64,000 nt of DNA from NCBI RefSeq assembly GCF_003018115.1, contig NZ_CP027457.1; one strand, 5' to 3'. Numbering within the stretch: the first letter of the stretch is position 1; every line of letters begins with the position of its first letter. Below are positions 54,866-57,800 of this stretch, piece after piece. A program made the position numbers. This DNA comes from Escherichia coli. GTDB lineage: Bacteria; Pseudomonadota; Gammaproteobacteria; Enterobacterales; Enterobacteriaceae.

Positions 54866-57800
54866 TAAGGAAGCTCGATGGAAAGCAAACGTCTGGATAA
54901 TGCCGCGCTGGCGGCGGGGATTAGCCCCAATTACATCAATGCCCACGGTAAACCGCAGTCGATTAGCGCCGAAACCAAACGGCGTTTGCTTGACGCGATG
55001 CATCAACGTACCGCCACGAAAGTGGCGGTAACGCCAGTCCCGAATGTCATGGTTTATACCAGCGGCAAAAAAATGCCGATGGTGGTGGAGGGCAGCGGCG
55101 AATATAGCTGGCTGCTGACCACCGAAGAAGGAACACAGTACAAAGGCCATGTAACGGGGGGCAAAGCGTTCAATCTACCGACGAAGTTGCCGGAAGGTTA
55201 TCACACGCTGACACTCACCCAGGACGACCAGCGCGCGCATTGCCGGGTGATTGTCGCCCCGAAACGCTGTTACGAACCGCAGGCGTTGCTGAATAAACAA
55301 AAGCTGTGGGGTGCCTGCGTTCAGCTTTATACGCTGCGATCGGAAAAAAACTGGGGTATTGGGGATTTTGGCGATCTCAAAGCGATGCTGGTGGATGTGG
55401 CAAAACGTGGCGGGTCGTTCATCGGCCTGAACCCGATTCATGCGCTCTATCCGGCAAATCCGGAGAGTGCCAGCCCATACAGCCCGTCTTCTCGCCGTTG
55501 GCTGAATGTGATTTATATCGACGTTAACGCCGTTGAAGATTTCCATCTTAGCGAAGAGGCTCAGGCCTGGTGGCAGTTGCCGACCACGCAACAGACGCTG
55601 CAACAGGCGCGCGATGCCGACTGGGTCGATTACTCCACGGTTACCGCCCTAAAAATGACAGCATTACGAATGGCGTGGAAAGGTTTCGCGCAACGTGATG
55701 ATGAGCAGATGGCCGCGTTTCGCCAGTTTGTTGCAGAGCAGGGCGACAGCCTGTTCTGGCAGGCAGCCTTTGATGCGCTACATGCCCAGCAAGTGAAAGA
55801 GGACGAAATGCGCTGGGGCTGGCCTGCATGGCCAGAGATGTATCAGAACGTGGATTCACCAGAAGTGCGTCAGTTCTGCGAAGAACATCGTAATGACGTC
55901 GATTTTTATCTCTGGTTGCAGTGGCTGGCTTACAGCCAGTTTGCCGCCTGCTGGGAGATAAGCCAGGGCTATGAAATGCCGATTGGCTTGTATCGTGATC
56001 TGGCGGTTGGCGTAGCGGAAGGTGGGGCGGAAACCTGGTGTGACCGTGAACTATATTGCCTGAAAGCGTCGGTTGGCGCGCCGCCGGATATCCTCGGCCC
56101 GTTGGGGCAGAACTGGGGATTACCGCCAATGGACCCGCATATCATCACCGCGCGTGCCTATGAACCGTTTATCGAGCTGTTGCGTGCCAATATGCAAAAC
56201 TGCGGCGCATTACGAATTGACCATGTGATGTCGATGCTGCGTTTGTGGTGGATACCGTATGGCGAGACGGCAGATCAGGGCGCGTATGTTCACTATCCGG
56301 TGGATGATCTGCTCTCGATTCTGGCACTCGAAAGTAAACGTCATCGCTGTATGGTGATTGGTGAAGATCTCGGTACCGTACCGGTAGAGATTGTCGGTAA
56401 GCTGCGCAGCAGCGGTGTGTACTCCTACAAAGTGCTCTATTTCGAAAACGACCACGAGAAGACGTTCCGTGCACCGAAAGCGTATCCGGAGCAGTCGATG
56501 GCGGTTGCGGCGACACATGACCTGCCTACGCTACGCGGCTACTGGGAGAGCGGGGATCTAACGCTGGGCAAAACCCTGGGGCTGTATCCGGATGAAGTGG
56601 TACTGCGCGGTCTGTATCAGGATCGCGAACTGGCGAAGCAAGGGCTGCTGGATGCACTGCATAAATATGGTTGTCTGCCAAAACGTGCCGGGCATAAGGC
56701 ATCGTTGATGTCGATGACGCCGACGCTGAACCGTGGTTTGCAGCGCTACATTGCCGACAGTAACAGTGCTCTGTTAGGACTACAGCCGGAAGACTGGCTG
56801 GATATGGCCGAACCGGTGAATATTCCTGGCACCAGTTACCAGTATAAAAACTGGCGACGCAAGCTTTCCGCAACGCTTGAGACGATGTTTGCCGATGATG
56901 GCGTGAACAAGTTGCTGAAGGATTTGGACAGACGGCGCAGAGCTGCAGCGAAGAAGAAGTAGAGTGCGGTTGATGCCGGATGCGATGCATCCGGCAGTCA
57001 GTGTTATCAAATCACCATATTCAGCAGCAGACAGCCTACCAGACCGCACACCGAGATAATGGTTTCCAGCATCGACCAGGACTTGATGGTCTCGCCGATA
57101 GTAAGTTAAAGTACTCTTTGAACAGCCAGAAGCCTGGATCGTTCACGTGAGAGAAAATCACACTACCGGAACCCACCGCAATAACCATTAGCTCCGGGCT
57201 AACACCCGTCGTTGCAATCAGCGGTGCCGCGATACCACCCGCAGTGATTGCCGCAACGGTTGCGGAACCCAGCGCGATACGCAGTACGGCAGCAATCGAC
57301 CAGGCCATCAGCAGCGGAGAAATGTTGGTTTCGTGCATCATGGAAGCAATGTATTTGTCCACGCCGCTGTCTACCAGCACCTGCTTGAACGCACCGCCAC
57401 CACCGATGATCAACAGCATCATCGCAATGATTTTGATGGAAGAAACCAGCGTGTCGTTAATCTGATCCATTGAACGACCACGGTTTAGACCAAAGGTGAA
57501 CATCGCAATCAGCACGGCAATCAGCGTAGCCATTACCGGGTCACCGAGGAACTCCGCTACCGGCAGGAAAGCGTGACCTTTCGGCAGGATCATTTCGGCA
57601 ATCGCACGCATCGCCATCAGTACTACCGGCACCAGAGAGGTCCAGACGCTGACGCCAAAGCTCGGCATCTCTTCTTCGCTGAAGGTTTTCGCGCTGTAGA
57701 GACCTTCCGGGATTGGCTTATCGATACCTTTCAACACGCGAGCGTAAACCGGACCGGCGAGAATCACGGTCGGGATTGCCAGAATAGTACCGTACAGCAG

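Follow-up and report, generated by a model that had tools for sequence, protein, structure and literature searches.

The gntT locus and the GntI genes

The DNA analysed here, a stretch of 64,000 nucleotides from the Escherichia coli contig NZ_CP027457.1 (hereafter the window), carries the gene gntT, whose E. coli product (GNTT_ECOLI, WP_001131758.1) is the high-affinity gluconate:H+ symporter of the GntI system, together with the genes gntR, gntK and gntU (Table 1). The gene order malQ-gntT-nfuA-gntX-bioH matches that of the annotated relatives, such that gntT occupies the position of its orthologues, and the first 407 residues of its product are 100% identical to those of WP_001131758.1, the universal E. 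coli GntT of 438 residues. The near-identity to GNTT_ECOLI is, however, not full-length: all of the 407 N-terminal residues agree (407/407), while the last 31 are replaced. The gene in the window is the gntT locus, but its product is not an intact gntT product.

The distance from the initiating ATG to the native stop codon is 1316 nt in the window, as against 1317 nt in the relatives. As now read, the frame terminates early, and residues 408-428 form a novel tail of 21 amino acids, LSARPSSPGRCWKPLSRCAVW, which is unrelated to the native sequence and stands in place of the last 31 residues of GntT, TIGETIKSWSMLETIISVCGLVGCLLLNMVI. A preliminary description of this DNA had the reading frame ending at 57036 with a non-native tail of just this length, and had pointed to an adjacent frame running to a TGA at 57007-57009; both features are present, and from 57102 the adjacent frame reads TIGETIKSWSMLETIISVCGLVGCLLLNMVI up to its stop, which is exactly how intact GntT ends in the relatives. 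This stranded native tail is out of frame yet intact, its DNA being identical to that of the relatives along the whole segment. The number of codons lost was put at 30 in that description, but should be corrected to 31 (native codons 408-438). The sequence thus has the form of a frameshift pseudogene: compared with intact orthologues it carries an indel, and the ancestral coding sequence is retained downstream in another frame. The particular lesion is previously uncatalogued yet of an entirely ordinary kind, a frameshift by one base close to the 3' end of a gene.

The remainder of the GntI system is unaffected, with gntK, like gntR and gntU, intact. For the exact GntR protein of the window the collections list 86,983 blocks. 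A second lesion in this regulator was considered and rejected: T62 is the common GntR allele and I62, found in F8111, is the variant form.

Table 1. Coordinates of gntT, its parts and associated genes in the window
Feature	Position	Strand	Remarks
gntR	21040..22035	+	repressor of GntI genes; intact; common E. coli allele (T62)
gntU	22705..24045	+	446 aa; intact paralogue; comparator for the lost C-terminal helix; alternative gluconate uptake route
malQ	54878-56962		adjoins gntT, with nfuA on the other side
gntT, full ancestral extent	57007..58322	-	frameshifted gene; ATG at 58322, native TGA at 57007-57009
gntT reading frame as now read	57036..58322	-	428 aa and TAG (57036-57038)
Stranded native C-terminal segment	57007..57102	-	codons T408-I438 and TGA; encodes the hydrophobic helix that ends the GntP fold
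Replacement tail	57036..57101	-	21 codons and TAG, out of frame; non-hydrophobic; 4 K/R, 3 Pro
Deletion junction	57102..57103	-	one base missing, G on the gene strand (C on the + strand); third base of Leu407 codon TTG

A single-base deletion in codon 407

Alignment with the relatives shows that the wild-type context AACTTGACTATC has become AACTTACTATC in the window, while most other E. coli read AACCTGACTATC at this site. Over the entire gene the window DNA is the O169:H41 allele minus one base. The junction falls within the interval of about 57097-57107 to which the break had been assigned, but the nature of the change is not that proposed in the preliminary description, which invoked an indel in an AACTT/AACT repeat and implicitly restored an A, giving TTAACT. 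The base lost is a single G, a run of one between T and A, and the appearance of an ACTT ACTA repeat at the junction is itself a product of the deletion. A slippage indel, in which a mononucleotide run or tandem repeat gains or loses units, is therefore not what is found here.

The window was compared, in a base-by-base alignment, with five O169:H41 ETEC genomes that are nearly identical to it (F8111-1SC3, F9792, F6326-C1, 2014EL-1345-2 and E1373). The gap in gntT is the sole indel across the 64 kb, and the remaining differences amount to a few isolated SNPs and a patch of 17 SNPs in feoB. There are no further changes in the rest of gntT or in the stranded tail, which fits a recent event.

In the feoB patch (window 62335-63796), CP050207.1 and GF3-3 go with the window, and the five O169:H41 genomes are set apart from all three by 17 SNPs within 1.46 kb. 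Since these SNPs are clustered and the flanks are near-identical, the patch looks like a short recombination tract. At three other positions, 43279 (glpE M52I), 45297 (rtcR E462K) and 48965 (rtcA, synonymous), the alleles of the window differ from those of both the O169:H41 clade and three outgroups. The two amino-acid variants recur in more distant lineages (L012-L019), so that the three alleles, being homoplasies or imports, do not mark the lineage cleanly. GlpE-I52 and RtcR-K462 were accordingly rejected as markers of the lineage, the contigs which carry them being only 94-99% identical to the window; in L012-L019, moreover, the marker loci ended about 400 nt before the gntT site.

Consequences for the encoded permease

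The Pfam model GntP_permease (PF02447) matches the intact GntT of a relative over model positions 1-440 with 629.0 bits. The product of the window matches positions 1-410 of 440 with 590.6 bits, a drop of 38 bits, and the match ends exactly at residue 407. Given the loss of the end-to-end family match, the product does not qualify as an intact permease of the GntP family (TCDB 2.A.8). By the same model the 30 positions lost belong to the conserved core of the family. It is this shortened Pfam coverage, the missing residues 408-438 and the out-of-frame tail of 21 residues that set the window product apart from GNTT_ECOLI, with which it shares residues 1-407 and the synteny malQ-gntT-nfuA.

The similarity of the adjacent frame to the C-terminus of GntU, remarked on previously, is borne out by comparison of the two paralogues, in which 10 of the 31 tail positions are invariant as against 36% identity overall, so that the degree of conservation between GntT and GntU is the same in the lost tail as in the rest of the protein. 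In the Kyte-Doolittle scale the maximum over a window of 19 residues is +2.05 for the lost tail, a value of membrane-helix grade, and -0.53 for its replacement. O169:H41, strain 5A and EPEC E2348/69 have one and the same GntT protein despite 3-5% divergence of the DNA in this segment, and this identity across phylogroups indicates that GntT, including its C-terminus, is under strong constraint. A sequence search of the PDB detected no solved homologue of GntT. AlphaFold2, run on a shallow alignment of seven sequences, gave a mean pLDDT of 43 and a pTM of 0.31, too low for the packing of the last helix to be read from the model, and called a helix at 409-437 with low confidence.

Since the lost segment is hydrophobic and lies in the conserved core, the GntT of 428 residues is predicted to be non-functional, a prediction for which the published gntT mutants, discussed below, also provide a basis by analogy.

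Distribution of the allele and its closest relatives

How widely, then, is the shortened gene distributed? A query of 261 nt covering the site was compared with 5,424 complete E. coli genomes; every one of the matches listed extends over 262 nt, and none reaches 100% identity. Together with the difference between 1316 and 1317 nt in the length of the gene, this places the frame break far beyond chance. When 5,426 complete genomes of E. coli, a RefSeq set that leaves out the source record, were searched with a 40-mer centred on the junction, there was no match; the corresponding wild-type 41-mer, used as a positive control, had 29 matches among complete E. coli genomes. Likewise, a 33-mer spanning the junction had no match in metagenome or species-representative collections. 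The exact product of 428 residues occurs once among about 15 billion proteins, in NCBI only, and no independent assembly from Logan or ENA contains it.

Of the relatives found, CP050207.1 is the closest; it has the G and encodes an intact GntT of 438 residues. It shares the feoB alleles of the window, including the otherwise private 63691-A, and over the comparable 13.1 kb differs from the window by one SNP, private to CP050207.1, and by the gntT indel. On the terminal branch leading to the window there are consequently, over those 13.1 kb, 0 substitutions and the gntT indel only. CP050207.1 contains blocks of N at 1326-1577, 5519-5814 and 6449-6572, of 252, 296 and 124 nt, and each has exactly the length of the corresponding stretch in F8111, a coincidence which suggests that CP050207.1 is a reference-guided consensus assembly. 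On account of the same blocks envZ and yhgF go uncalled. CP050207.1 is therefore a scaffolded consensus, yet it remains an independent read-out of the lineage.

Given the uniqueness of the junction and of the protein in these searches and the intact gene of the closest relative, the lesion in gntT either is very recent and confined to a single record, or else is not real.

Origin of the deletion

The preliminary description had posed the choice as one between a genuine frameshift, removing the last transmembrane helix, and an assembly or homopolymer error. The alternative as such is well put, but the slippage in a tandem repeat or homopolymer that was proposed as the mechanism does not apply to a run of one. 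The choice between a real mutation and an artefact is one that sequence alone cannot make, and the arguments that follow are consequently a matter of weight.

We lean towards the deletion being a real mutation. On this reading the source clone would bear a genuine, very recent and strain-private deletion of a single nucleotide, the G of the Leu407 codon TTG, so that the base would be absent in the cell itself. Translation would proceed correctly to residue 407 and continue out of frame for 21 unrelated, non-hydrophobic residues to the TAG stop, and the resulting GntT would lack residues 408-438, and with them the last membrane helix, a conserved element of the GntP-permease fold. The transporter would presumably be misfolded or unstable and high-affinity gluconate uptake by the GntI system would be lost, with GntR, GntK and GntU remaining intact.

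The main competing explanation, to which we give a substantial but somewhat less than even chance, is that the G is present in the organism and was dropped at consensus calling, such that gntT would in reality be intact and encode 438 residues. In keeping with this the allele is found in a single record in all the collections searched, and an isolated indel unaccompanied by substitutions on the window branch (over the 13.1 kb compared with CP050207.1) has the look of an error, as does a break in a protein otherwise invariant across E. coli. Sibling long-read assemblies of the lineage visibly hold indel errors of one nucleotide, as in malQ and igaA of F9792, and the eight related complete genomes contain about one annotated frameshift per 128 kb of the homologous region, so that the single frameshift of the 64-kb window is close to what the base rate would give. 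Against it stands the position of the deleted base outside any homopolymer or simple repeat, unlike all the demonstrable errors in the related assemblies. In the homologous stretch of these assemblies the other annotated frameshifts (n=3) are all homopolymer contractions: those of malQ and igaA in F9792 (at 21156 and 43865; G6 to G5 and C4 to C3) and that of rtcA in ST540 (at 14844; T6 to T5), which are probably homopolymer consensus errors in the RefSeq assemblies. A G of run length one is atypical of such consensus errors, and this context supports a real mutation. In addition, all of the homopolymer runs of at least five in the window (232/232) agree in length with those of the relatives, which gives its consensus the appearance of being well polished and clean for the usual class of error; in a consensus of this quality, with 0 of 232 such runs deviating, a random deletion outside a homopolymer would be unusual. 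The argument from context nevertheless cuts both ways, for real spontaneous deletions of one nucleotide also favour homopolymer runs.

Two further readings accept the base as missing but deny that a functional gene has been lost. A gene that is tolerated or recoded, either by a -1 ribosomal shift restoring the native tail or by retention of gluconate transport in the protein of 428 residues, could be entertained on the grounds that the native tail is perfectly intact downstream and that 93% of GntT (407/438 residues) is unchanged; we regard it as very improbable. The stretch from codon 405 to codon 428 contains no slippery heptamer of the form X_XXY_YYZ, the only one in the gene being at codon 65, and a TAA in the frame of the native tail immediately upstream of the junction leaves almost no room for a productive shift. 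Programmed frameshifts are conserved among relatives, unlike this one, which is found in none of them; with neither a heptamer at the site nor an orthologue carrying the frameshift, programmed ribosomal frameshifting was rejected. As to residual transport, the 30 Pfam model positions lost are those of the family core, the replacement tail cannot, on its Kyte-Doolittle profile, span the membrane, and a nearby point change, D395N, is already sufficient to impair growth on gluconate (10.1101/364505). The remaining reading, in which the short form would be the normal allele of the clade, was least credible of all and is refuted by the alignment with gntT from other E. coli which the preliminary description had recommended. 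The relatives and all inspected genomes carry the extra base and encode a product of 438 residues, which excludes orthologues with a shared short C-terminus: the G and the full-length GntT are present in the five O169:H41 genomes, GF3-3, PSS-12, ST540, GCA_053475595.1 and CP050207.1, and the junction is absent from the 5,426 complete genomes.

Comparison with other gntT lesions

Real loss of gntT is biologically plausible in view of its selection in the mouse gut and of the gain observed in CRISPRi. In E. coli Nissle adapting to the gut of the mouse, gntT alleles were repeatedly selected, comprising three premature stops, two large deletions and D395N (10.1101/364505). Gluconate did not support growth of the stop mutants, and D395N impaired growth on it (10.1101/364505). 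Similarly, in a gut CRISPRi screen, fitness increased on silencing of gntT (10.64898/2026.01.05.697630). The allele of the window resembles these in affecting the same gene with the same predicted outcome, loss of GntT, and its lesion falls in the C-terminal region that also holds D395, 12 residues further on. The Nissle alleles, however, arose under observed selection and their phenotype was measured, whereas the allele of the window is known from one database record and has no sign of spread. That the deletion is not only real but also selected, constituting a natural-isolate counterpart of the mouse-gut and CRISPRi gntT knockouts, caught at its origin in a close relative of O169:H41 ETEC with gntR, gntK and gntU still intact, seems to us doubtful. 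One private allele lends no specific support to selection and cannot show it.

The genes called 'frameshifted' by PGAP (malQ and igaA in F9792, rtcA in ST540) offer a comparison of a different kind. In these, as in gntT of the window, a one-base deletion private to one assembly breaks a conserved gene, but they are homopolymer contractions while gntT has lost its base from a run of length one.

Two sets of candidate truncations of gntT in other collections were set aside. A member of the GntT cluster with 341 residues proved to be at a contig edge in three of its four places, and in the fourth to derive from a metagenome contig of 2.3x coverage. An allele encoding 406 residues occurs in four Logan contigs (L028-L031; ERR10497995, ERR10499047, ERR10499282 and ERR10498921), in which an A3 to A2 change in TTCAAAGAG shifts the frame at codons 402-403; the site is 16 nt upstream of the deletion in the window and internal to the four contigs. 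The four runs belong to one project and comprise at least three haplotypes, so that a systematic sequencing or assembly error is likely and fits better than shared ancestry, and the allele was not taken as support for natural truncation of gntT.

In practical terms, annotation pipelines should label the gntT of the window a frameshifted pseudogene, and the base needs to be verified before the strain is used in work on carbon sources or colonisation. If real, the deletion would be a further loss-of-function allele of gntT, a gene already known to confer an advantage in some gut conditions when inactivated; if an error, it would exemplify a consensus deletion outside homopolymers in an otherwise clean assembly. 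Beyond the single record its significance is slight; a recent strain-private knockout and a sequencing error would both be ordinary events.

Other features of the window

Between gntU and yhgN, adjoining the GntI operon, lie two overlapping genes on the + strand (24185-26281 and 26188-27483), which the relatives annotate as a RecQ family ATP-dependent DNA helicase and a DNA-processing protein DprA. The same two genes are recognised by PADLOC models, PsyrT over its full length (1062 bits, E=0) and PsyrA with E=1.7e-202, and on these matches are predicted to constitute a PsyrTA pair with a toxin-antitoxin and anti-phage defence function. Further along the window, at about 39184-41214 between glgP and glpD, the O169:H41 relatives annotate a truncated pseudogene for a PstS-like substrate-binding protein together with a hypothetical gene. 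In PSS-12 and ST540 this place is occupied by other sets of genes, which are intact, from which we conclude that this stretch is a variable accessory spot.
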